Shown here: piece after piece, positions 4,172 through 23,626 of the stretch | Layout of the letters: every line of letters starts with the position of its first letter | How positions within the stretch are numbered: position 1 is the first letter of the stretch | Source of the DNA: a virus | Lineage: Duplodnaviria > Heunggongvirae > Uroviricota > Caudoviricetes | DNA: 32,192 bases | IMG/VR virus record: IMGVR_UViG_3300025944_000008 | Reading direction: 5' to 3' (one strand) | Translations under genes and position numbers: made by a program | The notes under the pieces: model-generated | The model's database searches: none | The model's input: only the letters and a program-made list of their open reading frames with translations | What the model was told of the DNA's origin: nothing

Positions 4172-4546
4172 TTAGTCGCCGAGGATCGCTGCCTCGAGGG
4201 CGCTCTTCGCGTCCGAGGGATTCCCCGGGTTGTCGGAGAGCGAAGCCAGCTTGATCTGCGGTGCGGACATGTCGACGGCCTTCTCGATGACGTCGAGGTC
4301 TTGGGCGGGGTCCATCAGACCATCCACCTTCTGCTGGAAGTTGGTCTCGGGGTCGAGCCCCTTGGCCTCCAGACGCATGGCGATCTTCTCCGCCCTTTCG
4401 CGGCGCTGATAGAAAGCCAGCTTCTCCTGCTGCTCTCCGATCGTCGCCTCTTGGGACTGGATCTTCTGCTGCTGAGCGCGGAGGGTCGGACCGACCTGCC
4501 CCAGGATCTGGGCCGCCTGCTCGCTGGAAATCTTCTGCATGCTCAT
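4172..4546 (-). CDS. Coiled-coil scaffold-like head protein, 124 aa
   Basis: Start moved to ATG 4546 (SD AGGAG). Q/E/K-rich helical run (LRAQQQKIQSQEATIGEQQEKLAF); carries EKIA and KLAS motifs. Confidence 0.7.
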   Translation of the reverse strand: MSMQKISSEQAAQILGQVGPTLRAQQQKIQSQEATIGEQQEKLAFYQRRERAEKIAMRLEAKGLDPETNFQQKVDGLMDPAQDLDVIEKAVDMSAPQIKLASLSDNPGNPSDAKSALEAAILGD

Positions 4547-4568
4547 GGTCGTCTCCTGATCCGTCGTC

Positions 4569-6122
4569 TCAGTAGCAGCCTGCGTTGCCTTCCTTGACCT
4601 CACCCGGGTGCTTGCCCTTGGCGTCGCTAATAGCTGCGCCGAGCTTGCACACTCGGCATTCACCCGTGTGGCCGCAGGTGCAGCCGTCGTGGCCTTCCCC
4701 TGCTCCAGCCATCGGGTTCATGCCGCCACCCGTGCCGCCCATCCCGCCCATGTTGGCCAACTTCGCCTTCATGGTGCAGAACTGGCATTCGCCCTTCGAG
4801 TTGCAGGTGCAGCCACCGCTCGCGATCTTCTGGAGCTGAGACTGCACTGCGGCACCCGCGATCTTCACACCGGCCTTGCCAGTATTCCGCAGGTTCTCTT
4901 GGAGCTTGTTGTCGTGCTTCTCCGAGAATGCCGGCTGGTCGAGGACCTCCTTGAGAGGATTGACCACCAGCTTCTTGGCATCACGCTTCGTGTAGTCGAT
5001 GGCCGCCTTGTTCGAGTCCACGAGCTTGGTGCCCGAGTTCCCGTCCTGGCTGTTGGCCGCCGTGCCGCCCTGCGTGGGCGACTCCTCGCCGGCCTTCATC
5101 GTCTTGAGCTGGCCCTTGCCAGCCAGAGGCGATGTCGTGCCGCCGCCATCGATGTTTGCCTTCATCACGTCCTCGCCGGCGAGCTTCATGAGGATGTGCT
5201 GACGCGCGATTTCCTGCGCTGAAGCGGCCTTCGCCATGTTGCCCAGGTGCTTGTGCATGGCACCACCGCCCATTGCACCGCCCATGGCGGCGCCGGCGAG
5301 GCCACCCTTCAGAGCGCCCGAGGCGCGGTGACCTTCGCCACCGGCCGCGGCGCCGCCGACTGCACCAGGGATGGCGCCGAGCAGAGCTCCACCAGCCGCC
5401 GCGGTCGCACGAGGATGCTGTGCCGCATGGTGAGCGACGAACTCCGTCGCCTTGCCAGCGAAGCTGGCGGTCTTCAGGGACGCGGCGTTGGTGCCCTTGT
5501 TGTGAGCGCCCGACGGACCGGCCACCAGAGGACCCTTGGCGGGGTACTCGTGGTGCGGAACCGAACCGTGGTTGTTGCCTGGCGCCTCATGGTAGTTGGT
5601 CTCGAGGTGCGTCTTGGCGCCGTGCGGATTGCCTTCGTTCCGCTCGAGCCCCTTGTTGTGCTCGTCCTCGGCCTGCTCGCCCTTCGCCTTGTTCTTGGTG
5701 TACTTCTGCGAGCCGCCGATCGCTTGCGTGGTCTCGAGAGCTCCAGCAGCCGAAGCCGGATTCGGCACCGACTTGCCGCCGGCGGTACCACCGCCTGCAC
5801 CCGGCTTCATAGCGGTCTTGGCCAGCGCCTGAGCGATCGGGCCCGGAGCGGCAATGTCGCCGAGGTGGGTCGCGAGGAAGTCGACTGCCGACGCCAGCTT
5901 CTCGACGTGGTCGTCAGAGATGAGAGCAGCGTAGGCCATCTTCTCCTTCGACTCGCACTCGACTTCTTCCTCGTGCGGGGAGGGGATGTGCCCGTGCTCC
6001 TTCTTCTCGTACGCCAGGAGCTTCTTGACCTTCTCGGGCTCCTTGTGGGCCTCGGAGGCGATCTTGGCGCTCGCCGTCTTGATGGCGCCCGCGATCATGT
6101 CCTGGAGTGGCAGAACGCTCAT
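4569..6122 (-). CDS. Low-complexity head core/scaffold-like protein, 517 aa
   Basis: Gly/Ala/Lys/His-rich; many K-x-A motifs; Gly-zipper segment; two CxCxxxGECxxC motifs near the C-terminus. Confidence 0.8.
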   Translation of the reverse strand: MSVLPLQDMIAGAIKTASAKIASEAHKEPEKVKKLLAYEKKEHGHIPSPHEEEVECESKEKMAYAALISDDHVEKLASAVDFLATHLGDIAAPGPIAQALAKTAMKPGAGGGTAGGKSVPNPASAAGALETTQAIGGSQKYTKNKAKGEQAEDEHNKGLERNEGNPHGAKTHLETNYHEAPGNNHGSVPHHEYPAKGPLVAGPSGAHNKGTNAASLKTASFAGKATEFVAHHAAQHPRATAAAGGALLGAIPGAVGGAAAGGEGHRASGALKGGLAGAAMGGAMGGGAMHKHLGNMAKAASAQEIARQHILMKLAGEDVMKANIDGGGTTSPLAGKGQLKTMKAGEESPTQGGTAANSQDGNSGTKLVDSNKAAIDYTKRDAKKLVVNPLKEVLDQPAFSEKHDNKLQENLRNTGKAGVKIAGAAVQSQLQKIASGGCTCNSKGECQFCTMKAKLANMGGMGGTGGGMNPMAGAGEGHDGCTCGHTGECRVCKLGAAISDAKGKHPGEVKEGNAGCY

Positions 6123-6135
6123 TCTCTTGCTCCTG

Positions 6136-6606
6136 TCAGGTTCTGACCTGGGGCGCGCCCGCGGTCGGTTGAGTTCCCTGCGACGGCGAAGTCGAGGGGA
6201 GATTCTTCGGCTGCGAGTACGCCGCGATGTTCTTCTTCGCGCCCATGGTCGGCTTCGGGCTCGTCAGCTTCATCTGTGTGAGACCGTTCTCCGGCATGGG
6301 CAGGAGACCGGCTGTCTTCTCACGGAAGATCGAAGACAGTTCCTCACAGAAGCCGCTTACCAAATCCGAGCTGAAGGGCACCGAAATGCCAGCCGTCTTG
6401 GATTTGGGACTCGCCTTCTGTTCGTCATCACCGGGCGTCGGATACTTCTGATGAGCCTCGTGCCGCCCCTTCGCCGTTCCGTACCCCTTTGGAGAGTGTC
6501 CCGTCGCATGGGACTGCTGAGTGGCGATCGCCCACGACTCACTCTCAGGCATGGAGGGGTTCTCCGCCCTGATGTGTGCCGCACGATCGTGGATCCACTT
6601 CGGCAT
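6136..6606 (-). CDS. Hypothetical head-associated protein, 156 aa
   Basis: SD AGGAG; contains SKTAG and GFCEELSSIFREKTAG motifs; lies in the head operon. Confidence 0.75.
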   Translation of the reverse strand: MPKWIHDRAAHIRAENPSMPESESWAIATQQSHATGHSPKGYGTAKGRHEAHQKYPTPGDDEQKASPKSKTAGISVPFSSDLVSGFCEELSSIFREKTAGLLPMPENGLTQMKLTSPKPTMGAKKNIAAYSQPKNLPSTSPSQGTQPTAGAPQVRT

Positions 6607-6624
6607 CTTCTCTCCTGAGAGGAA

Positions 6625-6658
6625 CCGAGGCGGGAAGGACCATCCCCTCCCGCCTCGG
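6625..6658 (-). promoter_or_regulatory. Stable intergenic hairpin (weak terminator or mRNA stabiliser)
   Basis: Perfect 11-bp inverted repeat CCGAGGCGGGA/TCCCGCCTCGG with a 12-nt loop; only a poor U-tract follows. Confidence 0.5.
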
Positions 6659-6671
6659 GCACCCTGAGACC

Positions 6672-7664
6672 TCAGATGTTGTAGCCGAGCCCCCGCAGGA
6701 TCTGATGAGCGCGCTTCTCCACGAGCTCACCGAGCGCCTGCTGCGAGTTCTGCTGGGGAGCCGGGACCGCGCCCGCCGGAGCGATCTGCGGAGCGGCCTG
6801 CTGGGCCGGCTGACCAGTCGCCGGGTCGATGCCGTTGGCCTGCAGGATGTTGGCGGCCTGCTGCATCGCCGCCTTCTCGATCGCGGCGACGGTGGCTTCC
6901 TTGTTCATCATGTGATGAGCGCCGTGCATGGCCGCCGCACCACCGACCGCGCCGGCGGCAGCAGCATGACCCGGGTGCTTGGCGAAGTGACCGCCCGCGG
7001 CTCCCATCGCCTTGCCAGCGTGGTGCTTGGCGGCGCCGGCGGCAGCGCCCATGTGGTGAGCAGCCTGCTGGCCGAGGTGCTTCAGGTGGCCACCTGCGGC
7101 GCCCATCATGTTCGCCTGCTTGGAGGCGGCGATCTTCTCCGACTCCTGATTGAAGGCGTGCGCCATGACGCGACCGAGGAAGTCGGCCTCCTCGAACTTG
7201 GCCTGGGCCTCGGCGACCTTGGCCATCTCGGGACCTGGCTGACCGGCTTGCTGAGCCTGCATCTGCTCGACGACCTGCATGATCGCCTGGGCTTCCTGGA
7301 CGATCGCCGGGTCGTAGGCCTGCGGGTTGGCCAGCACCTGCTGGGCTTCCTGCACGTGCTCTTCGGTCAGCTCACCACCGCCCTCGGCACCAGGAGCCTG
7401 CGGCTGCTGGGGCTGCATTCCCTGCTGGGGAACGCCGGGCTGCTGAGGAGCGCCCGGAGCGGCACCCTGCGGCTGCTGTCCCTGGCCCTGCGGCCCGAGA
7501 ACTTCCTGGCCAAGAGCCTCGATCTGCTCGGGCGAGAGGTTCGACAGATCCAGGCCCTCCTGCTGGGCCATGTTCTGCGCCATCTCGGCCTGAGCGATCT
7601 TCTCGAGGTCCTCGCTCGCGCCGTTGGTGTTGTACGCCTGGGCCAGCCACGTATCCATGCTCAT
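6672..7664 (-). CDS. Gln/Ala/Gly-rich scaffold/core-like head protein, 330 aa
   Basis: Start moved to ATG 7664 (SD AAGGAG). Located directly after the protease gene; Q/P-rich linker, His/Ala-rich segment, multiple EKIA/KVA/KQA motifs. Confidence 0.8.
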   Translation of the reverse strand: MSMDTWLAQAYNTNGASEDLEKIAQAEMAQNMAQQEGLDLSNLSPEQIEALGQEVLGPQGQGQQPQGAAPGAPQQPGVPQQGMQPQQPQAPGAEGGGELTEEHVQEAQQVLANPQAYDPAIVQEAQAIMQVVEQMQAQQAGQPGPEMAKVAEAQAKFEEADFLGRVMAHAFNQESEKIAASKQANMMGAAGGHLKHLGQQAAHHMGAAAGAAKHHAGKAMGAAGGHFAKHPGHAAAAGAVGGAAAMHGAHHMMNKEATVAAIEKAAMQQAANILQANGIDPATGQPAQQAAPQIAPAGAVPAPQQNSQQALGELVEKRAHQILRGLGYNI

Positions 7665-7679
7665 GTAATTTCTCCTTCT

Positions 7680-7717
7680 CGACAAAAGCGTGTCGTCTCC
7701 GAGATGGACTCCATCTC
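7680..7717. promoter_or_regulatory. Two small intergenic hairpins between the protease and scaffold-like genes
   Basis: CGACA-N6-TGTCG (7680-7695) and GAGATGG-ACT-CCATCTC (7701-7717). Function unknown. Confidence 0.35.
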
Positions 7718-10122
7718 TAGTACAGCGCCTCTGCGAGTGCGCCCGTCTGGGCGAGGGACACCCGAACGCCTTGATCGGCGATATGGATGGCCCGGTCCGT
7801 GTGGTGCGCCCCGGTCAGGTATGCGAGCGAGTCGGGGCTGAACACGCTCGAGCTGGCCGTCTTGTCGACCCCACCGGCGAAGGCCTGCACCATGCTGCTA
7901 CCGAATGACTCGGGAGCGAGCTGGGGGTCGGAGACGAGGAACTTCTGGATGGCGGTGGCCTTCTTCACGATGCTGCGCCGGTAGCCGTTGTAGGCGGCTG
8001 ACAGCTTCTTCATGAGGGGATCGGCGGAGGCGGTCTTCTCGACGCTCTTCCGCGGATCGGCACGGCGTGCTTCAAGACGCTCCATTCGACGAGCAAGAGG
8101 AGTGGCGGCTACTGACCGCTCACCCACCATGCCCAGAGCCTGAAGGAGGTCTTTGAGAGCACGATCGATGCGATCGGGATTCACCTGCAGGGACTCGTCG
8201 ACGTCCGAAGAAGGCCCGAAGACCTCCCCCTTCCTGTCGAGTTCATCCGCCAGCGGCTTCTCTCCGATTCGCACCAGCATCACCCTCTGAAACTCATGGG
8301 GCTTAAGAACGATGCCCATCATAGCGGGGGTTGAGAGGGCTTCGGTAAGATCCATTTTGCCCATCTCGTCCAGCGCCTTGTTTGGGATCGAGCTCTCCCC
8401 TTTCTCCAGTCTTGGCAATGTCTCTTTCGAAAAAGGACCTGCCGGTATTGTTTTTATGATCTCACTCAGCTTCCTATGGGAAGCGGATTTTTCAGAATTA
8501 CGCGTACCTGGAAAGACGGCGTGCGCGACTTTCTCAGCCGTACCGCCGCAATCATCTCCAAGTCCGTGGCATCCGCACGTCGCTGACGCGATCTTCACTG
8601 CCTCGGCATCGCGGGTCTTGCGTGCCTTTCGAGCACTGACAAGGTGGGTCTTCTTGAACTCACCCATTGTCGTCCTCGACACCTGCCCAAGACGCCTTTC
8701 AGGCATATGGTCGAGATAGCTCTTCTTTGCCGCCGCCTCATCGCGATAGCCGATCATGACCTTTCGCTCATCGAACGAGCCGTCGTCCTTGAGCTGATTG
8801 ATCATGAAGACGAACTCTGAATCGCGGCTCGGCCCCACATAGACATCGAGCTGCTCGCCATCGGCATCTACGGTCGCTGGGATGTAGCCGTAATCGGCCT
8901 TCATCAGCTTCTGGTAGGTCACCTTTGAAGGATCGGCCTTTGAGTAGTACTTACGCGTCTGACCCTTCAACCACTCCAGCATGATCGGGATGCCTTGGAC
9001 GTGGATGAACTTCTGAATTGGGTCATTGGCCGTCTTGACTGAAGCTGTCTTCTCACGAGCAGCGTCGAGGTTGACGAGCGCGTCATACGACTCATTTGCC
9101 TCGAGCTGAGCCGGAGGATAGAGCCGCGCCTCGAATGCCGGCTTGGCAGCTTTCGTCTCTTGAATGATCTGAGTACGAGACTTGTTGCCGATGAAGTCGT
9201 TGAAGGTCGGGTCGTACATCCCGTCCTGGTGATTGCCGAGCCAGGTAGGATGCTCCTCACGAAGCGGGGCCGTAGGGTCTTGCTCACCGGCGAACTTCGA
9301 GAACTGCTCACCAACATCGACGCTGAGTCGAGGAATGGTGCAGTACTCACCCATGCAGACCTGATTGCCCTTTGACGCAAGCTTGGCCATGACCTTGGCC
9401 GTCTTGTCGGCTCCGATGAAGACGAAGGAGATGTCGAAGAAGCGAGGGCGAGGGTTGTAGACGAACACCTTCCTGCCATCTGGCAGGATGACATTCATCA
9501 TGCTCTTCGCGTGGTGGCAGTAGTCCTTCGGAGTCTTCGACCGGTGCTGACAGATCGAGCAGACGTCGTAGGGCACCTTGCAGCCCATTGAGACGTCCGG
9601 GAACTCTCCCCGCTCGATCTTCTCGATCACATCCTGAGCGTCGAAACGCTTGCAGAGCTCGCGGTCAAGATAGACCACCAGCTCCACGCGATGCATCTTT
9701 GGGTTCCACGCGGCGAGCTCGACCGAGCCGAATGCCCGCGACGAGTCCTTGTTGACGTGGTGCTTGTACGGATGCGCCCCCATGAAGGTGGGGAAGCCGT
9801 ACTCCCAGCTCTTGCCGATCTCCTTCATCCGCGTGGCGGGAAGCTTCTCCCAGTCCTTCGGAGAGTGGATCAGCTCCTTCTCAGGGAAGTGGTCGCCATT
9901 GATGTTGGAGCCCCAGATCTCGCCGGCGCCCATGGCGTTCACCAGGACGTAGATGCCGTGCTTGCTGGGGCGAACAGTCCTGACGAAGTCGGCGATCTGA
10001 GGATGCAGGTTCGCTCGCGATGAGGCAGAGGCAGTCTTTACCAAGCCGTCATCGAGCAAGGGCTGGCAGAAGATCTGCCCCTCATCGTTCTTGCCGAAGA
10101 ACTGAACCTGCTTGACGAGCAT
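7717..10122 (-). CDS. Prohead (capsid maturation) protease with an inserted inorganic pyrophosphatase-like domain, 801 aa
   Basis: The N-terminal ~250 aa show HK97/herpes-type maturation protease patterns: HPYKHHVN (His), DVSMGC (Ser, nt 9589-9591), FFDISFVFIGADKTA. Nt ~8641-9006 encode IPIMLEW...DYGYIPATVDADGEQLDVYVGP...FDERKVMIG, a family-I PPase-like (InPase) pattern. Confidence 0.75.
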   Translation of the reverse strand: MLVKQVQFFGKNDEGQIFCQPLLDDGLVKTASASSRANLHPQIADFVRTVRPSKHGIYVLVNAMGAGEIWGSNINGDHFPEKELIHSPKDWEKLPATRMKEIGKSWEYGFPTFMGAHPYKHHVNKDSSRAFGSVELAAWNPKMHRVELVVYLDRELCKRFDAQDVIEKIERGEFPDVSMGCKVPYDVCSICQHRSKTPKDYCHHAKSMMNVILPDGRKVFVYNPRPRFFDISFVFIGADKTAKVMAKLASKGNQVCMGEYCTIPRLSVDVGEQFSKFAGEQDPTAPLREEHPTWLGNHQDGMYDPTFNDFIGNKSRTQIIQETKAAKPAFEARLYPPAQLEANESYDALVNLDAAREKTASVKTANDPIQKFIHVQGIPIMLEWLKGQTRKYYSKADPSKVTYQKLMKADYGYIPATVDADGEQLDVYVGPSRDSEFVFMINQLKDDGSFDERKVMIGYRDEAAAKKSYLDHMPERRLGQVSRTTMGEFKKTHLVSARKARKTRDAEAVKIASATCGCHGLGDDCGGTAEKVAHAVFPGTRNSEKSASHRKLSEIIKTIPAGPFSKETLPRLEKGESSIPNKALDEMGKMDLTEALSTPAMMGIVLKPHEFQRVMLVRIGEKPLADELDRKGEVFGPSSDVDESLQVNPDRIDRALKDLLQALGMVGERSVAATPLARRMERLEARRADPRKSVEKTASADPLMKKLSAAYNGYRRSIVKKATAIQKFLVSDPQLAPESFGSSMVQAFAGGVDKTASSSVFSPDSLAYLTGAHHTDRAIHIADQGVRVSLAQTGALAEALY

Positions 10123-10125
10123 CGC

Positions 10126-10755
10126 TTACTTCTTGGCGCCCAGGTCGTGGCGAAGCTTGGACTTCTGGAGCATCTCCATCTCGCGATCGGGCATCCTGAG
10201 CATCTCCGGCTTGGGCAACCGGCGGCTCTCATTGATACCCTTGCGCCCTTCGACGATGGCCTTCATGGCGTCGAGACCGACCGCACCCACACCTTCTTCG
10301 CTCTGGGCCATGTCGACATGCTGACGGACGAAGCTTCCAGAGACGACCGGGTCTCCCGAGAAGTCCGGGTTGAAGCGGTGAAGGGTGGAGAAGATTGCCT
10401 GGACCTGGTGCGCCGGCTTGTCCTTCAGATCTGGGTTCGACGCCATCATCCGCTTGTAGTTGCGGGTCTTGGTGATGGCTCGACGAGTGGCATCATAGGC
10501 GTCACCAGCGAGCGCCAGGCCGATGCCGCCGAGTGCCGTGGCACCCAGACCCTTGGCCATGGCAAGACCTCCTTGCCCGACAGACGAGCCGATCGACTTC
10601 CAGTCCATGGCAGCCTTCTTCAGGATGCCGTCGAACTCCTCGAGGAACTCGTCCTTCCACGGGCTCTCGCTGATCTCGCCGCGGGTCTGCATGATGAAGT
10701 CGTACGTCTCGGGCGCGACTTCCGCGACCTTCTCCATGAGCTGCGTGCTGTTCAT
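10126..10755 (-). CDS. Head-associated protein with a Gly-rich hydrophobic helix, 209 aa
   Basis: EKVAE, EFLEEFDGILKKAAM, then GGLAMAKGLGATALGGIGLALAG; SD AGGAG. Confidence 0.8.
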   Translation of the reverse strand: MNSTQLMEKVAEVAPETYDFIMQTRGEISESPWKDEFLEEFDGILKKAAMDWKSIGSSVGQGGLAMAKGLGATALGGIGLALAGDAYDATRRAITKTRNYKRMMASNPDLKDKPAHQVQAIFSTLHRFNPDFSGDPVVSGSFVRQHVDMAQSEEGVGAVGLDAMKAIVEGRKGINESRRLPKPEMLRMPDREMEMLQKSKLRHDLGAKK

Positions 10756-10764
10756 CTTGAGCTC

Positions 10765-11058
10765 CTAGTAGGGCGACTGGCGGGTGTAGGCCTGAACCTC
10801 GGGATTGAATCCCTGGTACGCAGCCTGAGTCTGATTGACTGCTCTCTTGCCGAGAGCGTAGAGACCGGCGGCACCCAGACCAAGACCGATCGTGCCCATC
10901 ACCGGGCCGTTCTGCTTCATCGACTTCTGCCAGGCCCAATTGGCACCACGGCCGATCCCCTTCGCTGCTCCTCCCACTACGCCGAGCACACCCGCGACCT
11001 TCTCGCCGGCGAGCCCGCGGAGGACAGCACGGGAATATGCAGCTTGGCGGAAGGTCAC
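10765..11058 (-). CDS. Small Gly-rich membrane-like virion protein, 97 aa
   Basis: GTG start overlapping the upstream stop; EKVAG motif; hydrophobic GTIGLGLGAAGLYALG. Confidence 0.75.
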   Translation of the reverse strand: MTFRQAAYSRAVLRGLAGEKVAGVLGVVGGAAKGIGRGANWAWQKSMKQNGPVMGTIGLGLGAAGLYALGKRAVNQTQAAYQGFNPEVQAYTRQSPY

Positions 11059-12032
11059 TTCCGTGCCGCCGTCTTGAGGAACTGAGTCGTCTGATCGAGA
11101 CCCTTCTTTACATCGAGAAGTGCCTCATGTGCGATCGAACGCTCATGGGCGCACTTCATCATCGCCGACGCCGAAGCGACGAGTGGGTGATTGGGGTTGA
11201 CCAGCTTGCCGGCAGTCTTCGTGCGGCTCTTGAGCTGCTCTTCCGAGACGCCGGCTCGCAGGAGACTCTCTGCCAGCTTCGTGATGTCTTCACGGCCGAG
11301 AGCGGCAACGACCGAGACAGCCTCCACCACACCACGGAAGCCAGCGCCCTCCGGGTTGAGCACCTCTTCCCGAGCGGCTTTGTAGAAGTCGGCCGAGGCC
11401 TGCTTGTACATCAGGTCCGCACCTTCGTGGGCCGCAGCGAGCTCATCGTAGGAGCGCTTGAGCTTGAGGTGCTCGGCATAGACGTCGTTGACCGGATTGG
11501 CCGAGCCCTCCCAAGACGGATCGAGCCCGGCAGCACTCGCGACCTTCTCGACAGGCTCTCCCTGGCCGAACTGCCCAGAAGAGTTGTTGCGGTTGAAGAG
11601 GTCGGCGAGACCAGATTCGGGATCACCAGCCCCCGACCCGTCCATCCCCATTGAGCCGTCCTTCTCTTCCCGGATCGGCGCTCGATGGTAGTCGGCCTTG
11701 TTGTGCAAGACCTTGCCGCTGTGAGCCGGAGATCCGCCATCCCGGAGATCCCGAATCACCACTCCCGGATCTGCAATCGGGAAGTGGACGTTCTTGTCCT
11801 TGTTCTTCTCGAAGAGATGTTGGAAGGTGGAGTTGTTGGCGAATTCGACGATGCGGTGGATGTGCTCGTTGTTGAGCTCTGGATGCTGGGAGGCGAGCTT
11901 CACGATCGACTCGTTCAGCGGCGTCTTCTTGTCCAGGAACTCAGCCGAGGCCTTCTGACCGATGTATTCCAACGTCTCGGGGCTGACGCCCTTGCTGGAT
12001 CCCGACGTCAGAAGTTGCTCGAAAACGTCCAT
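11055..12032 (-). CDS. Head-associated protein, 325 aa (first gene of the head operon)
   Basis: Start moved to ATG 12032 (GGAG SD); the track's upstream extension overlaps the divergent HTH gene. Contains KLAS, KVAS, KQAS and KTA motifs. Confidence 0.8.
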   Translation of the reverse strand: MDVFEQLLTSGSSKGVSPETLEYIGQKASAEFLDKKTPLNESIVKLASQHPELNNEHIHRIVEFANNSTFQHLFEKNKDKNVHFPIADPGVVIRDLRDGGSPAHSGKVLHNKADYHRAPIREEKDGSMGMDGSGAGDPESGLADLFNRNNSSGQFGQGEPVEKVASAAGLDPSWEGSANPVNDVYAEHLKLKRSYDELAAAHEGADLMYKQASADFYKAAREEVLNPEGAGFRGVVEAVSVVAALGREDITKLAESLLRAGVSEEQLKSRTKTAGKLVNPNHPLVASASAMMKCAHERSIAHEALLDVKKGLDQTTQFLKTAARK

Positions 12033-12079
12033 GAGTTCTCCGGCTTCTGAGTTAGCATCATATTCATAGGAGGAAGACC

Positions 12080-12781
12080 TTGGTGGGAAGCCGATTCTTG
12101 ACAAAGAAGGAGGCGGCAAAGGTACTTGGCTGCAGCGAGCGAACCATCTTCTACAAGGTTCAGCGAGGGGAGTTGCGCACGGTGAAGAACGGCCACCGGG
12201 TAGACATCCTCGAGGAGGACGTCATCGCTCTCCGTGATTCTCAACGGAAGAGCGACGGAGAGAAAGCTCTTCCATTCGCTATCAACCGCCAGACGCTGAT
12301 GCGACTTCACACCGAGAATAGCATCCTCCGGCGTGACGTCGATCAGATCCTCCGAGTACTCAACATCCGAAAGGACCCGCTGAGGTTCACGGACTTGGAG
12401 ATTACCTCGTTGTACCAGATGGCCAATACATACGCCAGTGATGGTTGGCCGCCTCATGTCGAGGAGACTTGGGCCGGGTACCTCCAACGCATCGATGCGC
12501 AGCACTTCGGTCAGATCGAGAGGATGACCAAGGACTCACATCCCTGGCGCCCCTTCCTTCGACTTGCCTCGACAATGGCACTGCGCCCTTACAACACTGA
12601 GCTCTCTATCCAACTCTCGTCTGCCAGAGAGCACATGCAGATGATGACGAGTGTGTGGTTCGAGATAAAGCAAATCTCTCCTCGTCAGCTCGACGCAATG
12701 CTCAATCGAGAAGCCCGCCCCAGCAAGCGTTTGCTCAATAAGCTCGAGAGAAGGCAGAAAGAATACGCTGCAAAAAACTGA
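12080..12781 (+). CDS. Excisionase/MerR-like helix-turn-helix DNA-binding protein, 233 aa
   Basis: N-terminal FLTKKEAAKVLGCSERTIFYKVQRGELRTVKNGHRVDILEEDV matches the HTH_17-type pattern; SD AGGAGG before TTG/GTG. Confidence 0.8.
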   Translation: MVGSRFLTKKEAAKVLGCSERTIFYKVQRGELRTVKNGHRVDILEEDVIALRDSQRKSDGEKALPFAINRQTLMRLHTENSILRRDVDQILRVLNIRKDPLRFTDLEITSLYQMANTYASDGWPPHVEETWAGYLQRIDAQHFGQIERMTKDSHPWRPFLRLASTMALRPYNTELSIQLSSAREHMQMMTSVWFEIKQISPRQLDAMLNREARPSKRLLNKLERRQKEYAAKN

Positions 12782-13269: not shown

Positions 13270-15109
13270 AGCTATTCGCCCTGGGAGTGATAGCCGGCGC
13301 CACGATATCTGGACGAGGGAAGTCCAGCATCGAGACGATGAAGCACAAGAGGGTGGAGTGGAACGAGTCGTCGCTGGCGTTGGGCGACTTCTTGTACTCG
13401 ATCATGCGCCGCTGCTCGTTGTACTCAGCGAAGATGTTCAGGAAGTCGCCGCCGAATGGCGCTTTGAACTGGTCCCACTGCGGGAAGCGGAAGACGTTGC
13501 GCCGCTTGATGGCGTTGAAGATGTCGCTCATCACTTCGCTACGGTTGACGAGGAATCGCTTGAGTCCGTCCTCCCAGCGAATCTTCTCGCCCGGATTCGA
13601 GTACTGGTACTTAACGATGCGGTTGAGGCCGAAGCGGTTGGTGAGCTTGTCGTTCGGCCAGAAGCCGCCGCCGTAGTCGACCCCGATCCTACGCACGTTC
13701 CACTTGAGGATGGTCTCGATGATCTCATCCATCTGCGTCTGAGGCTCAGCCTCGCGCCCCTCAAATCGACGGTAGTAGAAGACCTGGAACTTGCCGTCCA
13801 GATAGGCGCCCATCGTGAAGACGGTGAAGGAGTGCTCACCGCCACCCATCCAGTCGATGCCGCCGTAGATGGGTGTCGAACCGCCAAAGTGGTTCCTGTA
13901 CTTCTCGAGAGAGGCTGGATCAAGTGAGAGGTACTGCGAGCAGTTGTCGATCAAGTCCTGCTGAGTGAGGGGTCGAGTGCCCGAATCGTACGAGAGGCCG
14001 AGCACCTCATTGTAGAAACGATCGCGCGGGTAGGTCTTGAGGTTCTGGATGATGTCGTCGTGCGAAATCCACGGCACCATGAGCTGCGGGATGCGGAAGC
14101 CCTCATAGGGCTTGGGGATCTGATTGATGATGTCTGGGTTCAGAGACGCCCACTGCGCCATCGGATCCTTGGCGTCGATGGGGCCGCCGCACTTGTCGCA
14201 GATGAGGCTCTTTGCCCCGATGTGGTCCTCGGTGAGGATGTTCCAGTGGACCTTGGTGATCTTGCCGTCGCCCGTAAACATAGAGTGGGCGTGGCAGGGG
14301 ACCACCCATTCGTTCTGGGTGGAGTACTGCTGCCAATAGGCCTCGATTGTGTTGTCGAGGCTCTTGGGGGTGCCAGAGAAGATGAAGACACCGCCCTTGT
14401 GCGACTCACCGCCGATATTGATGACGGAGTGCGAAGCACACTGCTCGATAACGGGGATGTTGTCGGTGAGGATGTCCTGGAGCTCGTCGATGCAGATGAT
14501 GTCCGCCGGGATGCCGCGGCAGCGGTCGGCGTTCATGAAGGCGTAGCGGAGAGTGATCTGGGAGCGGTTGATGAACTTCTTGAGGAAGACGTTGTCCGAG
14601 AGCTTGGTGGTCGTCCAGCTCTTCAAGAATGGACTGGTCTCGATCGGCTCCTTCAGACGGTCCTGCGAGAAAACCTTCGATTGTTGGTTGGTCGGCGAGA
14701 CGTAGAGGCTGTTGAGGGCAGTGACGATGCAGGAGTAGGAAAGGAGCTTGTTGCCGAGCATGGTCGACTTCTCGACCTGTCGACCGCACTTCAGCAGGGT
14801 CCGCTTCGATGAGGTGTCGTAGATCTGGCGGAGGTACTCGCGCTCGGCAAAGGAGTAGTTCTTGTAGGTCTGATGCTCTTTGTCCGGCATCATGATCGCG
14901 AATTCGGTGAACTCCGAAGGGAGCACCGAGACGAGATCCTGGAGGTCCTTGAAGTCCTGTGCTCCGTACTCGTTGCCAGGATCCGGCTCGTAATCCCACT
15001 CTTCCGGGAACTCGGGACCAGAGTAGAGACCCTCATGATCCAGCAGCATTACGCGACGCTCTCGGTCGCGTTGGTAGGAGTGGAGATCCTCCACGATCTC
15101 GTAAGCCAT
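13268..15109 (-). CDS. terL: Terminase large subunit, 613 aa
   Basis: Walker A GRQVEKST, Walker B ICIDELQD, motif III FSGTP, Cys/His Zn-type insert (VVPCHAH...ICDKCGG), RNase H-like nuclease motifs YGGIDW, IGVDYGGG and DDSFHS. Confidence 0.93.
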   Translation of the reverse strand: MAYEIVEDLHSYQRDRERRVMLLDHEGLYSGPEFPEEWDYEPDPGNEYGAQDFKDLQDLVSVLPSEFTEFAIMMPDKEHQTYKNYSFAEREYLRQIYDTSSKRTLLKCGRQVEKSTMLGNKLLSYSCIVTALNSLYVSPTNQQSKVFSQDRLKEPIETSPFLKSWTTTKLSDNVFLKKFINRSQITLRYAFMNADRCRGIPADIICIDELQDILTDNIPVIEQCASHSVINIGGESHKGGVFIFSGTPKSLDNTIEAYWQQYSTQNEWVVPCHAHSMFTGDGKITKVHWNILTEDHIGAKSLICDKCGGPIDAKDPMAQWASLNPDIINQIPKPYEGFRIPQLMVPWISHDDIIQNLKTYPRDRFYNEVLGLSYDSGTRPLTQQDLIDNCSQYLSLDPASLEKYRNHFGGSTPIYGGIDWMGGGEHSFTVFTMGAYLDGKFQVFYYRRFEGREAEPQTQMDEIIETILKWNVRRIGVDYGGGFWPNDKLTNRFGLNRIVKYQYSNPGEKIRWEDGLKRFLVNRSEVMSDIFNAIKRRNVFRFPQWDQFKAPFGGDFLNIFAEYNEQRRMIEYKKSPNASDDSFHSTLLCFIVSMLDFPRPDIVAPAITPRANS

Positions 15110-15543
15110 TACATCCTCTCGAGGTAGTCGGCAGCAGACCGCAGCCGGGAAGGGTTATCCCTCAGGCAGCCGATTCCAGTGTTGCACCCGAAGCAAAGCA
15201 GCCCCCGGACTTTCTTCGTCTTGTGGTCGTGGTCCACGTTGAATCCCTGAAGTTTGCTCTTCACGGCCTTTGGGGCCTCTCCGCAGATGGCGCATTTGCC
15301 GTTCTGCTGTAGGACTAGTGCATCAAACTCTTCTATGGAGAGGCCGTAGCGTCTCTTGAATCGAGTATCCGTTTGTCGACGATGATTGGTCTTTCCCCAC
15401 TCAGTCGCTCGGTCGGCCGAGCAGCGCCTGCACCAGCAAATATAGCCTCGCTTGTCTGGACAGAAGAACTTAGCCGTAGCCGGCTTGTCTTTCTTGCACC
15501 GTGGACAAGTCTTAGTTCTTCGTGGGTAGCGGATCTTGTTCAC
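15109..15543 (-). CDS. Endonuclease VII-family HNH nuclease, 144 aa
   Basis: RYGLSIEEFDALVLQQNGKCAICG...VDHDHKTKKVRGLLCFGCNTGIG; N-terminal CxxC/CxxC; stop overlaps the terL ATG. Confidence 0.9.
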   Translation of the reverse strand: MNKIRYPRRTKTCPRCKKDKPATAKFFCPDKRGYICWCRRCSADRATEWGKTNHRRQTDTRFKRRYGLSIEEFDALVLQQNGKCAICGEAPKAVKSKLQGFNVDHDHKTKKVRGLLCFGCNTGIGCLRDNPSRLRSAADYLERM

Positions 15544-15920: not shown

Positions 15921-15923
15921 CCA

Positions 15924-18726: not shown

Positions 18727-18731
18727 GGAGC

Positions 18732-20189
18732 CTATTGTGCTGCAGGCTGCTGCTGTTGTTCAAGTAGGGCCCGGAATTGTTGGATCAAGTTTTCCTTTTC
18801 CTGGGCCCTGGCGGCAAGGTACTCGTCGACCGATCCACCTGGCTTCTTGAGGCGCAGCTTCTCGAGAACGCCGGTTGGACGGCGAGTCGCCAAGAACCGC
18901 TGGACCTTCACATTCCGCTCTTCTGGGGGAAGCATCGCGTGGCTCTTGTAACGGATGCCACGACCCTCAACCTGCTTCAACTTCTCATCATTCCAGTGAG
19001 GCTCTAGCATCTGGATGAGTCGAGTGCCCTGCAGATCGAGACCTTCTCCACCGGCCGAAGAGAGCAAGAGGGCGCGAATTTTGTTCTCGTTGTACTGCCT
19101 GACGAGCTCGTCCCTCTTCGACTTCGGCATCTCACCGGTGAACTCGCCGTAGGGGATGCCAGCTTCTTGAAGCCTCTGGGCGTAGGGATTGATGCCTGCG
19201 CCGAGGTAGTTGGAGTAGACGACAGCCTTTGCCCTCTCGTTCGCGGCAAGCTCTTGCTGCAACCGAGAGAAGGCTTCGTCCAGCTTGGGCTCATAGACCT
19301 TCTTCACGTCCTCCTGAAAGGGAGCAGTGGAGTTGGCGATTTGCCGACTGGCCCCCAAGAAGGCGTTGAGCTGCTGGGATTCCCGCTTGCTGGGAGGCAG
19401 ACGAGAGCGGATCTTGGCCGACACCCAAGGTGGCGCCTTCTTCAGGATGGTGTCGTAGACCTCGAGCTGCTTCGGGTCCATCGGCACCTTGACGTCCTCA
19501 CGATTGACCTCGGGGAAGTCTTCCTTCGCAGACGGGTGATAGTCGACCCACTTGTCGAAGATGCCTTGAAGCTCTTCCTGGCGCTTGGGGTTCAGCTCTT
19601 CAACGACACCCGGCTTGAGGCCGCGGAGTCGATTGATGATGCCAGGGCTAATCTTCTTCTGACGAATGAACCTCTGATTGAACCGCTCCGGGTCCGTCGG
19701 AAGCAACGGCGCTCCAGAGGCGAGGTCTACGAGTGGCGCAATGTCAGACGGGCGGTTGTAGAATGGACTGCCGGTCAGAAGCAGGCGCTTCTCGGCCTCG
19801 TTCTTCGCCAGCGTCTTGTAGGTCTGCGTCTGAGGCTCACGAGCACGGTGAGCCTCGTCGACGATCATCAGGGGCTGCGTCGGAGCCTGACGCTTCCTCG
19901 TGATGTTCTGCATCGACTGGACATGAGCCTTCTGCTTGGCTCCGCCCAACCACTTCTTCTGCTCCTTGCGGTAATTCGCCTGGAGTGCTGCCGGAACGAT
20001 GACGTCCGACGGCATCTTGAGAGCCTTCTGAGCCTCGATCGCAGTTCTCGTCTTTCCAGAACCGAGACCGTGCGCCACCACCAAGCCCGGCTGGTCAGGC
20101 TGCTGGATACGATCGACAACACGCTGCTGATGGGGCTGTAGCCCTGCCACGCCCGCGATCTTCCCGAGGTTGGTAGCGAGACGACTCAT
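18732..20189 (-). CDS. SNF2-like superfamily 2 helicase/ATPase, 485 aa
   Basis: Q motif LQPHQ, Walker A HGLGSGKT, DEAH box, LLTGSP, SSAGGEGLDL, EPHWN, motif VI QVEGRGIRYKSH. Confidence 0.92.
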   Translation of the reverse strand: MSRLATNLGKIAGVAGLQPHQQRVVDRIQQPDQPGLVVAHGLGSGKTRTAIEAQKALKMPSDVIVPAALQANYRKEQKKWLGGAKQKAHVQSMQNITRKRQAPTQPLMIVDEAHRAREPQTQTYKTLAKNEAEKRLLLTGSPFYNRPSDIAPLVDLASGAPLLPTDPERFNQRFIRQKKISPGIINRLRGLKPGVVEELNPKRQEELQGIFDKWVDYHPSAKEDFPEVNREDVKVPMDPKQLEVYDTILKKAPPWVSAKIRSRLPPSKRESQQLNAFLGASRQIANSTAPFQEDVKKVYEPKLDEAFSRLQQELAANERAKAVVYSNYLGAGINPYAQRLQEAGIPYGEFTGEMPKSKRDELVRQYNENKIRALLLSSAGGEGLDLQGTRLIQMLEPHWNDEKLKQVEGRGIRYKSHAMLPPEERNVKVQRFLATRRPTGVLEKLRLKKPGGSVDEYLAARAQEKENLIQQFRALLEQQQQPAAQ

Positions 20190-20662
20190 CGATTGAGGAT
20201 GTGGAGCATCTCGTCCACAAAGGCCACCATGGCCGTCTTCGGGAACTTGGGATGCTTCTTGAACGCGTTGTAGGCGTCGATGAACTCTCGATACTTCTTG
20301 GCATCACCGCCGCGATCTGGATGGTGCTTGAGCGAGAACTCGCGGACGAGCTTCTTCACGTCCTTCTGCGACTTTACGCCTTTGAAGGCCGACGGGACTG
20401 CTTTGGGGAGTGCTGAGGCCGGCACTGTATGAACGGGAGTTGTGTACCCGACGAGACCGCCAGCGATTCCGCCAGCGAGCCCCATCTTCCACGCGTTTTT
20501 CTTTCTCTGCTCGGCATCATAGTGGTGCGTTACATCTCGCCACTGGTCATGCCAGGACTTCATCGTCAATCCACGGACGGCTCCGCCAGCACCGCCAGCA
20601 ACTGCCCCAACGCCGGTGAGGAAGGCACGTGGGTTAGTCTTGATGAAGTCACCGAGTCCCAT
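20186..20662 (-). CDS. Membrane-anchored-type J-domain (DnaJ-like) protein, 158 aa
   Basis: KKLVREFSLKHHPDRGGDAKKYREFIDAY (HPD at nt 20315-20323), preceded by two Gly-rich hydrophobic helices; ATG 20662 with SD AAGGAG. Confidence 0.85.
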   Translation of the reverse strand: MGLGDFIKTNPRAFLTGVGAVAGGAGGAVRGLTMKSWHDQWRDVTHHYDAEQRKKNAWKMGLAGGIAGGLVGYTTPVHTVPASALPKAVPSAFKGVKSQKDVKKLVREFSLKHHPDRGGDAKKYREFIDAYNAFKKHPKFPKTAMVAFVDEMLHILNR

Positions 20663-21482
20663 CGCCACTCCTTGGGGTGACCACCACTCCCCACTTCACC
20701 ATCAGGTTGTGTGGCGGGGCCATGGTCTTGTCCCACCACCGCTGCTCACACTCAGCGCGTGTAATAACACGCTGGTTGCCATCGGTGTTGGGGTCCATCA
20801 GATGGACCACATTGTCGTCGATCTGAGTGATGACGACGTAGTGCCCCTTGCCAGGGTTGTTGAAGCTTTGGAAGTCGGCAATGATCGGGATGCCCTGATC
20901 GGTGATTGCCTTCGCCTCATCGAGGGACGAGAAGCACTTGTCGTACGCGTCGAAGCCGAGCTTCTGAGCTCCACGGGTGATCTCGTCCACCTCCGCACCG
21001 CCGCGATCGCGCACGCCGATGGCGTACATGATCTCGTGCTCGGCAAAGCGATCGGCTCCCCAGTGCTCGAGCACGGCCTTCAGACACGCCGCTGAGCATG
21101 AGTATTGTGTCTTCTGTTGGTAGGGCTCGACCTGTGCGAGCTTCAAGAACTCGCTGGTTTGATCGATGAGGGGGATGATCGTCTTCGCCGGCTTAGAGCT
21201 AAGAAGGCGCTTGGCTCCCTCGATGACCGGCCCCGGTGGCTTCTTTGGGGTCGGCAGCTTGTTGGCGAGGAAGTTGGTGATCGTTCCGACGATCGGTGGA
21301 GCGGGCTGACCAAGCATCGGGCTGAAGGACTGGTGTCCTTGGGATGCCTGGGCCGCGGCGTTGCCGAGCTGTGCGTACTGCCCCTTCAACCACGACTTTG
21401 CGACACCAAGCGGACTCGCGAGCTTCAGTCGCTGGATCTGCTGGAACTCGTCGGAGAAGGCGGTGAAGAGAGGTGTCGTCAC
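20649..21482 (-). CDS. Peptidase C39-like cysteine protease with an N-terminal extension, 277 aa
   Basis: YQQKTQYSCSAACLKAVL (Cys), GHYVVI (His), HLMDPN (Asp). Confidence 0.88.
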   Translation of the reverse strand: MTTPLFTAFSDEFQQIQRLKLASPLGVAKSWLKGQYAQLGNAAAQASQGHQSFSPMLGQPAPPIVGTITNFLANKLPTPKKPPGPVIEGAKRLLSSKPAKTIIPLIDQTSEFLKLAQVEPYQQKTQYSCSAACLKAVLEHWGADRFAEHEIMYAIGVRDRGGAEVDEITRGAQKLGFDAYDKCFSSLDEAKAITDQGIPIIADFQSFNNPGKGHYVVITQIDDNVVHLMDPNTDGNQRVITRAECEQRWWDKTMAPPHNLMVKWGVVVTPRSGDGTR

Positions 21483-21592
21483 GGCTCCTTGGTCTTCTTC
21501 TTCGATGAAGCGTCGATGCGCTCGACGACCTTTCGGATCTCTGCTTGGATGTCGTCCATTTCCTTCGTACGATCGGCATCCGGCTTACTCAT
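21479..21592 (-). CDS. Small charged helical protein, 37 aa (MSKPDADRTKEMDDIQAEIRKVVERIDASSKKKTKEP)
   Basis: SD GGAGG; its TGA overlaps the GTG of the C39 gene; fills the operon gap. Not in the track. Confidence 0.65.
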   Translation of the reverse strand: MSKPDADRTKEMDDIQAEIRKVVERIDASSKKKTKEP

Positions 21593-21607
21593 GAGAGACC
21601 TCCTGGG

Positions 21608-23626
21608 TTAGACGAGCTCCTTCTGCTGGAGCGAGCGAAGGCCGCCGATCACCTCTTCCATGTTCTTCATGGCACGCTCGGCGGCACCAGTCGGGACCTG
21701 GTTGAGGCCGAGACGTGAGGCGATCAGCATCTCGGCGAGCTTGGTCGATGTCGTGTCGAGGTCGGGGAGGTAGCTGGCGAAGATGGAGATGTTCTCCGGG
21801 TTGATGAAGTTCATGGCGAGAATCTTGTCGGCCGTCTCGGTGTCCTCGAGCGCAGCCGCCTCCTTCACCAAGTCCCGGCGCCAGAAGCTGTAATCGAATT
21901 GCTCGAGCAGCGCCGCAGCCTTCTTCTCTGCATTCGCGTGGATGTCGCCGAGCGGCACGATGGGGTTCAGGCCTGCAAGCTTCACCAGCTTATTGGGGCG
22001 ACGCTCCGCTTCCTTGATAACCTCCTGCGCTTCGTCCTGGGTAAGGCCCATGGCGCAGAGCAGGAACGTTGCCTCCGCCGTCTTCAAGAACCAGCGGTTG
22101 TCTCGGGCAACCTTCATGACCGGCATGCCCTCGAGAGACGTCTCTCCTGGGCCCGTCGACTTGACGGCCACTTCGTTCGGCAAGCTCTTGGCATCGGCCG
22201 CCGAGTCCGGGGTGTCACCCTTGGCCAGGTGAACCGGCTCTCCGCTCAGGGGCACCCACTGCATGTCGTCCGGGATGGCGAACATATCGCCCTCTCCCAT
22301 CGGCTCGAATGCAGAGATACCAGGAGTGGGGACGAGGGTCATCTGCGCCCCGAAGACGTCGCTGACCATGTACTGCAGCATCCCGTCCGGGCCCTGCGAG
22401 GTCGATTCGATGGTGAGAGGAAGAGTCGAGAATGGCTTGGCACCACCCTGTGGGTGGTAGACGAAAATGCCGTCGCCCTGCGGCTGCTGTCCTTGAGCCG
22501 CCTCGAGAGCCATGCCGCCAGGTCCCTCCTGACGCACACCGATGATCTCGTCCTGAGCACCATAGGCGCCGTGGCCATCAGTGAAGACGAAGAACTCAAG
22601 TGGCTGCATCTGGAAGTCGACCACAGGCAGCACGGTGCCCATCAGAGTCTCGCCACTGTCCGCGTTCTTCACAGCGTAATCACCGAACTCAGTGATGAGC
22701 GCCCCATCCGGCTCGTCCAGGCCCTGCTTCTGAGCACGCTGGGTGGTGACCGTCATGGTCTGACCTGGCTGCATTTTCGACATGTCCTGCCCAGCCATGG
22801 CGGCAGCCTGGTCCGGCGAGGCCTGCATCTCCTGCGGAGCGAAGGCGCCGGCGTTGGCCCACTTCACCTTGAAGTTGCCCGAGGCGAGCTTGGTGATCTG
22901 CACGACCGTCGGCTTGATGCTGTGGATCAGCGCCGAAGCCGTCTTCTCGACGCTCATGTGCTGAACCATCGCCATCCGGTTCGAGATCTTCCGAACCGAC
23001 GCGTTCTTCAGGAAGAGAAGACGGGTCTCCTCGTCGGAGGCGATCTTCTCGAGGAAGGCTTCGTACTGTTGATCAGAGATGGTCGAGGCAATCACCTCGC
23101 ACAGGGGCTTCTTCGCTGACGCCTGCTTGCCGAAGCCGCCAACACCAACGCCAGTCGCCACGGCATTGCCGTAGCCGTAATTGGTACGCATCGGCGGATA
23201 GAGCTGGTCGACCATGCCCTGATCGGTGGGCTTGCGGGTTGACGTCTCGACGGCGGCCGTGCGGAAGAGCTTCTCCCGCAGGCGGCGTTCGTTGAGAGGA
23301 AGAGCCTCGTTGCCATCGAGCATCACGTCCAGTGGCTGCATGAGCCGGTCCTTGACGATGATGGGGATCTTGACCGAGTTCTCCGGCTGATCAGGCAGAG
23401 GAGAATCCGTCTGATTGGTGACTTCGGCAGCTCCGAAGGCGTAGCCCCGCTGGGCATCCACGCGATCGAGCATCACGTTGACCGAGTAGTCCGCCAGGTA
23501 GGGGAGCTGCTTGTAGATCTCCGATGCGATCTCCCGCTGCCAGTTCTCGGTGTTGTCACCGAGCTTCACCGGCATGGCCACCTTCTCGAAGGTCGGCTTG
23601 AAGTCCTGATCGAGGAAGAGATTCAT
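21608..23626 (-). CDS. Large head-associated structural protein, 672 aa
   Basis: Long ORF coupled to the spike gene; about ten K-x-A motifs (EKVA, KQAS, EKIAS, EKTAS, KLAS...). No enzyme motif recognised. Confidence 0.8.
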   Translation of the reverse strand: MNLFLDQDFKPTFEKVAMPVKLGDNTENWQREIASEIYKQLPYLADYSVNVMLDRVDAQRGYAFGAAEVTNQTDSPLPDQPENSVKIPIIVKDRLMQPLDVMLDGNEALPLNERRLREKLFRTAAVETSTRKPTDQGMVDQLYPPMRTNYGYGNAVATGVGVGGFGKQASAKKPLCEVIASTISDQQYEAFLEKIASDEETRLLFLKNASVRKISNRMAMVQHMSVEKTASALIHSIKPTVVQITKLASGNFKVKWANAGAFAPQEMQASPDQAAAMAGQDMSKMQPGQTMTVTTQRAQKQGLDEPDGALITEFGDYAVKNADSGETLMGTVLPVVDFQMQPLEFFVFTDGHGAYGAQDEIIGVRQEGPGGMALEAAQGQQPQGDGIFVYHPQGGAKPFSTLPLTIESTSQGPDGMLQYMVSDVFGAQMTLVPTPGISAFEPMGEGDMFAIPDDMQWVPLSGEPVHLAKGDTPDSAADAKSLPNEVAVKSTGPGETSLEGMPVMKVARDNRWFLKTAEATFLLCAMGLTQDEAQEVIKEAERRPNKLVKLAGLNPIVPLGDIHANAEKKAAALLEQFDYSFWRRDLVKEAAALEDTETADKILAMNFINPENISIFASYLPDLDTTSTKLAEMLIASRLGLNQVPTGAAERAMKNMEEVIGGLRSLQQKELV

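Follow-up and report, generated by a model that had tools for sequence, protein, structure and literature searches.

Head-protease cleavage codes and the locus analysed

To our knowledge, the code read by the head protease has been worked out in only a few phages, namely T4 (L/I-x-E), phiKZ/SPN3US (A-x-E) and HK97. Each known code allowed the prediction of proteins that are packed into the capsid and injected. The assemblin of herpesviruses has the consensus hydrophobic-x-A, followed by S. Here, we analyse a window of 32,192 nucleotides (nt), the whole stretch of DNA to which all coordinates below refer, from the Caudoviricetes virus record IMGVR_UViG_3300025944_000008. The window is the reverse strand of 91787-123978 in a 210,330-bp genome (GC 59.6%). 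Its head proteins share a short motif with a Lys-x-Ala (K-x-A) core, and we propose, with a probability of roughly 0.75, that the phage's own prohead protease recognises as its cleavage signal K-x-A followed by S/A/G or, more rarely, E/Q, in most cases with a hydrophobic residue and Glu ahead of the Lys. The motif is enriched in head proteins, conserved in relatives and placed at domain edges, and the candidate protease models with the fold of known prohead proteases. We found no description of a K-x-A specificity in the literature searched, which included the papers on Salmonella phage Arash, the phage G genome and SPN3US. Head proteases that read a short recurring cut-site code are well known as a kind of system, whereas neither the Lys-x-Ala specificity nor the fusion of the protease to an InPase domain in one polyprotein was described in the literature searched.

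The best structural match of the candidate protease is T4 gp21 (5JBL), a head protease whose substrates are the scaffold or core, the internal proteins that are packaged, and the protease itself. As in T4, the putative sites form a short recurring P3-x-P1 motif, and N-terminal propeptides or targeting segments would be removed. T4 differs in reading Glu at P1 and Leu/Ile at P3 (PMC9026906), whereas Ala would be P1 and Lys P3 here. There is no detectable sequence similarity between the two enzymes, and the protease in the window is the N-terminal module of a long InPase polyprotein.

The jumbo phages phiKZ (gp175) and SPN3US (gp245) offer a second comparison: many head and ejection proteins, as well as the protease itself, are cut there at a short motif. 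In SPN3US, the cuts that gp245 makes in many head proteins follow A-x-E (PMC10052503), and the propeptides of phiKZ and SPN3US hold several copies of the motif (PMC10052503, PMC5694885). Their A/S/G-x-E code ends in Glu, unlike the Ala found here, and this family did not appear in sequence searches with our protease. The SPN3US sites were proven by mass spectrometry, whereas the sites presented here are predicted from sequence. The Glu-ending code of T4 and phiKZ does not describe them: Lys and Ala are the invariant residues, and Glu is enriched directly before Lys and sometimes after Ala without forming a fixed P1. The initial annotation of this DNA had suggested a Lys-x-Ala specificity analogous to, but unlike, the Glu-ending codes, and this view is supported by the enrichment of the motif, its specificity for the head class and the fold of the protease.

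Herpesvirus assemblin (pUL26N/VP24; 1VZV, 4V07, 1AT3) also matches in fold (Z 7-8.8). The likeness would extend to Ala at P1, a small P1' residue that is usually Ser, and the position of the protease as the N-terminal part of a longer assembly protein. In vivo, Ala225 is the last residue of pseudorabies virus (PrV) assemblin, which releases itself by a cut at an R-site lying C-terminally of its protease domain (PMC4498786). A cut at KLAS247 would likewise release the protease of this phage just C-terminal to its domain. In contrast, P3 is Val/Leu/Ile in assemblin and would be Lys here, the substrates and sites are many more here, no sequence similarity is seen, and the host is bacterial.

Arash gp222, the proteases of Vibrio phages D69/D181/D148 and phage G gp19 are true homologues (32-42% identity) that occupy the same head-module position, and their neighbouring head proteins bear K-x-A-(S/A/G). 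In Arash, these neighbouring head proteins are virion components by mass spectrometry (PMC10585845). The relatives differ in a freer P2 and in their C-terminal cargo domains. No cleavage specificity has been reported for the head proteases of Arash, the D69 group or phage G in the literature searched.

Enrichment of the motif in head proteins

Nearly all genes of the window lie on the minus strand. Read along that strand, the order is RNA polymerase (RNAP), a 672-amino-acid (aa) protein, a C39-like peptidase, an SNF2 helicase, endonuclease VII and the large terminase. The head block then follows with a 354-aa protein, an 801-aa polyprotein, an Ala-rich 337-aa protein, a 517-aa protein and the major capsid protein. 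The open reading frames (ORFs) are given below with the positions of the strict motif K[TLIVQ]AS and of selected broader sites.

2504..3622, minus strand: major capsid protein (phrog_2522, E 6.3e-9; tblastn match to the Arash major capsid protein)
4172..4663, minus strand: small head-module ORF; one strict site, KLAS at 4241-4252
4569..6122, minus strand: 517-aa Ala/Gly/Lys-rich protein; five strict sites, K15 (6069-6080), K20 (6054-6065), K75 (5889-5900), K217 (5463-5474) and K432 (4818-4829)
6672..7685, minus strand: 337-aa Ala-rich scaffold-like protein; KIAQ29 (7590-7601), KVAE156 (7209-7220) and KIAA184 (7125-7136)
7717..10122, minus strand: 801-aa protease-cargo polyprotein; six strict sites, K29, K247, K358, K510, K696 and K754, and the broader K363 and K545
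11055..12119, minus strand: 354-aa protein; three strict sites, K74 (11889-11900), K192 (11535-11546) and K239 (11394-11405), and KTAG301 (11208-11219)
13268-15109, minus strand: large terminase; no K[TLIVQ]AS
15109-15543, minus strand: endonuclease VII; no K[TLIVQ]AS
20649..21482, minus strand: Peptidase_C39-like protein; one strict site, KLAS20 (21414-21425), and KLAQ114 (21132-21143) at the edge of the C39 domain
21608..23626, minus strand: 672-aa conserved protein; four strict sites, K167 (23117-23128), K194 (23036-23047), K228 (22934-22945) and K246 (22880-22891)
24779-31135, minus strand: fused beta-beta' RNAP of 2118 aa, Rpb2 then Rpb1 domains in a single ORF; no K[TLIVQ]AS

Translation of the minus-strand ORFs reproduced the 20 exact K[TLIVQ]AS that the initial annotation had counted by eye in six ORFs (KTAS 7, KLAS 6, KIAS 4, KQAS 2, KVAS 1), and none was found in the other ORFs called in the window. 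That annotation had further listed four motif-free non-head proteins, which holds for the RNAP, the terminase and endonuclease VII; the claimed RNase HII was not identified by the Pfam search. Its estimate of about 45 K[TLIV]A in the head proteins was exact: 45 were counted in 12 head-set ORFs against 7.1 expected, and the reverse A[TLIV]K occurred 6 times in the same ORFs. The remaining ORFs of the window carry 5 K[TLIV]A against 7.8 expected.

The enrichment survives correction for composition. Based on the composition of each protein, 0.40 strict sites are expected in the six ORFs where 20 are seen, and the maximum reached in 5000 shuffles of these ORFs was 5. Because the six ORFs were chosen for having the motif, a second test was conducted on a block defined a priori (2504-12119), which comprises every ORF from the capsid gene up to the ORF preceding the terminase. 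With 15 strict sites in its 3164 aa, as compared with 16 in the 59,121 aa encoded by the rest of the genome, this block is clearly enriched (odds ratio 17.6, p 5e-12). It contains no copy of the reversed motif. Genome-wide, we counted 31 strict sites against 5.4 expected. These results confirm that the enrichment of the motif is real and not a post-hoc artefact.

Alternatively, the motif might be a by-product of a helical or low-complexity composition rich in Lys, Ala and Glu, with no specific function. The head proteins are indeed rich in Ala and Lys. In a scan of all tetrapeptides of the genome, KTAS and KLAS rank directly after the low-complexity repeat PQQP, and neither would pass correction over all tetrapeptides (p 1.3e-6 for KTAS and 3.6e-5 for KLAS). 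Since the p-values of a single genome are too weak after full correction, replication in other genomes matters. This explanation is nonetheless extremely improbable: besides the gap between 0.4 expected and 20 observed sites, reversed-motif controls of identical composition gave 6-10 times fewer matches, the Lys-rich RNAP is without any site, and alignments show the motif to be conserved within flanks that vary. Three codons for Ala and six for Ser (TCN and AGY boxes) occur among the 20 sites, and this variety of synonymous codons shows that selection acts on the peptide and not on a DNA repeat.

Conservation in relatives and definition of the motif

Homologues of both the protease region and the capsid protein were found by tblastn in Salmonella phage Arash and Vibrio phages D69/D181/D148, and one of the protease region alone in Bacillus phage G (gp19). 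With the head module as the query, megablast gave no match among phage genomes. The head-module proteins of Arash, the D69 group and phage G are dense in K-x-A-(S/A/G), often with Glu preceding; Arash gp220, for example, holds seven sites and one D69 protein ten. A scan of IMG/VR added 72 loci with a protease identity of 33-69%. The resulting 75 related loci, with Arash, D69 and phage G among them, contain 593 K.AS and 92 copies of the composition-matched reverse SA.K. For the protease family, the corresponding counts in its 150 best representatives are 358 and 36. Enrichment of head over non-virion proteins, the test that the initial annotation had called for, was apparent across the relatives: the ratio of observed to expected K.A[SAG] is high in five head-module families and low in the capsid protein, terminase and RNAP.

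354-aa family: 6.9
672-aa family: 5.2
Scaffold-like protein: 4.1
Protease polyprotein: 3.9
517-aa family: 3.5
Capsid protein: 0.8
Terminase: 0.6
RNAP: 0.5

The logo of the family reads M/L/F/I at -2, Glu at -1, Lys, T/I/V, Ala, and then S/E/A, with an acidic bias further upstream of Lys (positions -3 to -6). The strict form K[TLIVQ]AS, as first described, is therefore too narrow. It misses the conserved sites KSAS545, KTAG301 and KLAQ114 and every site of the scaffold-like protein, and P2 is broader in Arash, the D69 group and phage G, where E, Q, S, A and R also occur. As judged from these alignments, the motif is a K-x-A core with hydrophobic-Glu before it, a P1' of S, A, G, E or Q and a P2 that is nearly free in relatives. 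We trained a two-component expectation-maximization matrix on the relatives only. It over-absorbs sites (mixing weight 0.67), yet still ranks highest in this genome the polyprotein, the scaffold-like protein, the 354-aa protein and a 472-aa protein encoded outside the window. Among 1297 related proteins, K-x-A was not enriched at a fixed distance from natural N- or C-termini, a result that is uninformative on the scissile bond.

The protease family comprises 3112 clusters at 50% identity. We consider it fairly probable that cleavage at K-x-A plus a small residue is common to a whole clade of big phages, very large and for the most part uncultivated, to which Arash, phage G and the D69 group belong and in which an assemblin-fold protease is fused to cargo. 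The most distant relatives of the protease are found in cluster C mycobacteriophages. In one of these phages, Cali, K.A is not clearly enriched (gp93, 14 vs 7 expected; gp92, 4 vs 3.8), which makes the code clade-specific. Cali gp93 (L077 8788-12648) is recorded as 'tape measure', but its N-terminal part is distantly homologous to the head protease, and the major head protein is encoded directly downstream. Judging from these features, it resembles a protease-cargo polyprotein more than a tape measure.

The protease domain

The initial annotation had placed a serine-protease domain in ORF 7717-10122, and residues 30-249 of its product indeed model as the T4 gp21/assemblin fold.

9376..10035, minus strand: predicted prohead protease domain, aa 30-249, between KTAS29 and KLAS247
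9757..9759, minus strand: His122, putative catalytic residue, invariant in 49 homologues
9589..9591, minus strand: Ser178, putative catalytic residue in S-M-G-C, invariant in 49 homologues

Residues 73-219 match phrog_18299 (head maturation protease, E 2.4e-6), which is the sole sequence link to known proteases. An AlphaFold2 model built from the 49 homologues has a predicted local distance difference test score of 89.8. Its best match in VIA-align is T4 gp21 (5jbl; Z 10.3, root-mean-square deviation 2.5 A over 129 residues), and the herpesvirus proteases follow, led by those of varicella-zoster virus (1vzv, Z 8.8) and pseudorabies virus (4v08, Z 8.7). About 35 herpesvirus protease entries were recovered (Z 8.8 to 4.7), all above the first unrelated fold (Z 4.5). 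His122 and Ser178, in His-then-Ser order, would form the catalytic pair. The gene order of terminase, small ORFs, protease polyprotein, Ala-rich 337-aa ORF, small ORFs and capsid is the same in Arash, D69 and phage G, so that the modelled domain has both the fold and the head-module position of a prohead protease. In the 150 best representatives of the family, the domain usually starts near residue 25-40 and is followed by very different tails.

Inteins are typically placed next to active-site motifs. In many homologues (among them P0002, P0007 and P0012), a Hint/LAGLIDADG intein is found 2-3 residues past Ser178, within S-M-G-C, at a position equivalent to nt ~9580-9591 of the window. Many of the 150 best family members match the protease in two to five separate stretches, which fits intein insertions. 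Three cysteines inside the protease domain, C188, C191 and C202, are invariant (aa 170-322 region, 9157-9615, minus strand).

The protease-cargo polyprotein

The eight sites of the polyprotein and its cargo domain are located as follows.

10027..10038, minus strand: KTAS, aa 29-32, at the end of the N-terminal propeptide
9373..9384, minus strand: KLAS, aa 247-250, at the C-terminal edge of the protease domain
9040..9051, minus strand: KTAS, aa 358-361
9025..9036, minus strand: KTAN, aa 363-366, a broader site just ahead of InPase, aligned in 9/10 orthologues with gap-rich flanks
8647..9012, minus strand: InPase cargo domain (PF18823), aa 371-492, Pfam E 2.8e-30, between KTAS358/KTAN363 and KIAS510
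8584..8595, minus strand: KIAS, aa 510-513
8479..8490, minus strand: KSAS, aa 545-548, a broader site present in 10/10 orthologues
8026..8037, minus strand: KTAS, aa 696-699, in this lineage only
7852..7863, minus strand: KTAS, aa 754-757

Among the orthologues of the polyprotein, K-x-A is retained in all ten at K29 and K545, in nine of ten at K363 and K754, in eight at K247 and in seven at K510. Sites K29, K363, K510, K545 and K754 persist amid insertions and deletions, and K696 is lineage-specific, being found only in this phage. The site ahead of the protease domain is common to the family: 119 of the 150 best members present K.A[SAGT] within their first 70 residues, mostly at aa 28-33, and only 10 of 150 present the reversed pattern. 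InPase is bracketed by sites in seven other polyproteins as it is here, with sites lying within ~20 residues of its edges. In nine polyproteins, 0 of 74 sites fall inside Pfam domains (intein, InPase, cupin and domains of unknown function), against 15.3 expected if they were uniformly distributed (P ~1e-8).

The distribution of the sites bears on a further explanation, in which K-x-A and its upstream context form an uncleaved docking or capsid-targeting peptide that binds the scaffold, the shell interior or the protease and recruits proteins into the prohead. An amphipathic helix that binds a partner could explain the hydrophobic residue at -2, Glu at -1 and the acidic bias at -3 to -6. Helices are also predicted at several of the conserved sites, and T4 cargo has a targeting sequence. 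The T4 targeting sequence, however, ends in a cleavage site, so that targeting and cleavage can coexist. One copy per protein would suffice for docking, whereas up to 8-10 copies are found here, between domains and avoiding those that are folded. Furthermore, the sites flank the protease domain at fixed positions, like the autoprocessing sites of T4, phiKZ and herpesviruses. We therefore regard a docking role without cleavage as unlikely.

Further Cys-x-Cys clusters follow several predicted cut sites of the polyprotein, e.g., 'CGCHG' after K510. Together with the cysteines of the protease domain, their sequences suggest metal-binding modules.

Proposed processing of head proteins

Under the cleavage reading, the protease would be made as a polyprotein composed of a 31-residue propeptide, the protease, linkers, InPase and C-terminal domains, and would enter the prohead in this form. 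It would then free itself by cuts at K29 and K247 before cutting other head proteins. The scaffold-like proteins would be broken into fragments, and the cargo domains (InPase, the C39 peptidase and others) would be released from targeting or linker segments. We lean slightly towards a cut after Ala, with Lys as P3, x as P2 and Ala as P1, because the known proteases of this fold read P3 and P1 and leave P2 free. The main alternative is a cut after Lys.

Several points weigh against cleavage by this enzyme. We infer cleavage itself, the identity of the enzyme and the bond that is cut, and the scissile bond is set by analogy only. The link of the domain to known proteases consists of its fold plus one weak PHROG match: Pfam gave no match for aa 25-260 even at E up to 5, and no PDB sequence matched the protease region with either a single sequence or a profile. 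The capsid protein has no strict site. Several conserved K-x-A lie in predicted helices or strands, for example K194, K228, K588 and K629 of the 672-aa protein and GADKTAKVMAKLA in the protease tail, and some occurrences may thus be structural rather than cleaved. Finally, the paper on the Arash virion proteome is silent on processing and reports very high coverage for the orthologues (PMC10585845). This coverage is not decisive because the sample held many non-virion proteins.

If the code is true, the capsid contents that are delivered to the host could be read from sequence together with their mature boundaries. Candidate cargo in this phage would be InPase, the C39 peptidase and possibly the SNF2 helicase and a J-domain protein, and mature domain boundaries would become available for hundreds of uncharacterised cargo proteins. 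The code would also account for the architecture of the protease-InPase polyprotein and would tie phage prohead proteases closer to herpesvirus assemblin via a common Ala/Ser scissile bond. If it applies to the whole clade, an Ala/Ser specificity common to the phage and herpesvirus members of the fold might be ancestral. The clade is common in metagenomic data (3112 clusters), and some of its members are in culture, which makes these predictions testable.

Other motif-bearing proteins

A virion location of the six motif-bearing proteins is predicted from the homology of some of them to Arash virion proteins: it is clear for the polyprotein (gp222), weak for the 354-aa protein (gp220, a virion protein with 7 sites) and detected by profile comparison for the 672-aa protein, whose distant homologue is the virion protein gp218 (84% probability). 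In the 354-aa protein, K192 and K301 are each present in 9/9 orthologues of 27-47% identity. The 672-aa family has 53 homologues, of which 47 present K167-x-A-S, 52 present K228 and 49 present K246. Conservation of the flanks at K167 is only 0.12, P2 varies among F, Q, C, E and I, and the site closes a segment (aa 142-171) that AlphaFold predicts to be disordered. We also considered the 672-aa protein as a portal. This assignment was rejected, as the protein has no PDB fold match and no similarity to the portal of phage G.

Most K-x-A of the 517-aa protein are conserved in its orthologue (L006), where the P1' residue can be S, E, G or A. Orthologues of ORF 4172-4663 keep K-L-A-(E/G) near the position of its KLAS. 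The listed GTG start of this ORF creates a 95-nt overlap with the upstream gene, and three orthologues begin at, or within 2 residues of, the equivalent of Met40 (nt 4546). The true start is probably Met40, judging from these orthologues, in which case the overlap vanishes.

The three sites of the 337-aa protein are top-scoring with the matrix trained only on relatives. Its position between the protease and the capsid gene, together with its composition, points to a scaffold role. When the capsid proteins are aligned, the counterpart of KIAE24 (3542-3553) in Arash and D69 is KEAG27. The phage G capsid entry (PDB 6WKK) lists residues 1-280 of 282 and therefore yields no mature N-terminus.

The C39 domain of ORF 20649-21482 (aa 121-251; PF03412, E 2.6e-14) is preceded by an N-terminal extension of ~116 aa. 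The extension is missing from the sole C39 orthologue (L008), which keeps KLAQ directly before the domain. By these sequence features, the protein looks like a packaged cargo enzyme. Its presence in the same region raises the question of whether the sites are cut by this cysteine peptidase, or by a host protease, and C39 enzymes generally cut after small residues (Gly-Gly or Gly-Ala). We find another cutter very unlikely. The P2 of the sites is bulky (T, L, I, V and Q here; T, I and V across the family) and not Gly, so that they are not double-glycine sites, and the C39 protein is itself tagged at its domain edge, as cargo would be. A C39 orthologue is found in 1 related locus, whereas the motif and the assemblin-fold protease are found in all, an argument limited by loci that span only ~10 kb on each side. 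A shared host protease is disfavoured by the diversity of the relatives' hosts, which include Salmonella, Vibrio and a Bacillus-group bacterium.

A 472-aa protein is encoded ~7 kb past the end of the window (genome 83287-84705; L076:3288-4706). It has 7 broad K-x-A-(S/A/G) sites where 0.78 would be expected, as well as 3 strict ones, and no Pfam or PHROG match was found for it. From these sites, it is probably a further substrate encoded outside the head block.

The SNF2-family helicase (18732-20189, minus strand) has G-K-I-A-G at residue 10, and its Arash orthologue gp217 (38% identity) is abundant in the mass spectrometry of the virion (PMC10585845). The helicase may be packaged too. In the same virion data, the split beta and beta' RNAP subunits of Arash are the most abundant proteins (PMC10585845). 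Beside the capsid gene, ORF 1612-2388 (minus strand) encodes a ribosomal L7/L12 C-terminal domain (PF00542, E 2.1e-12, aa 130-195).

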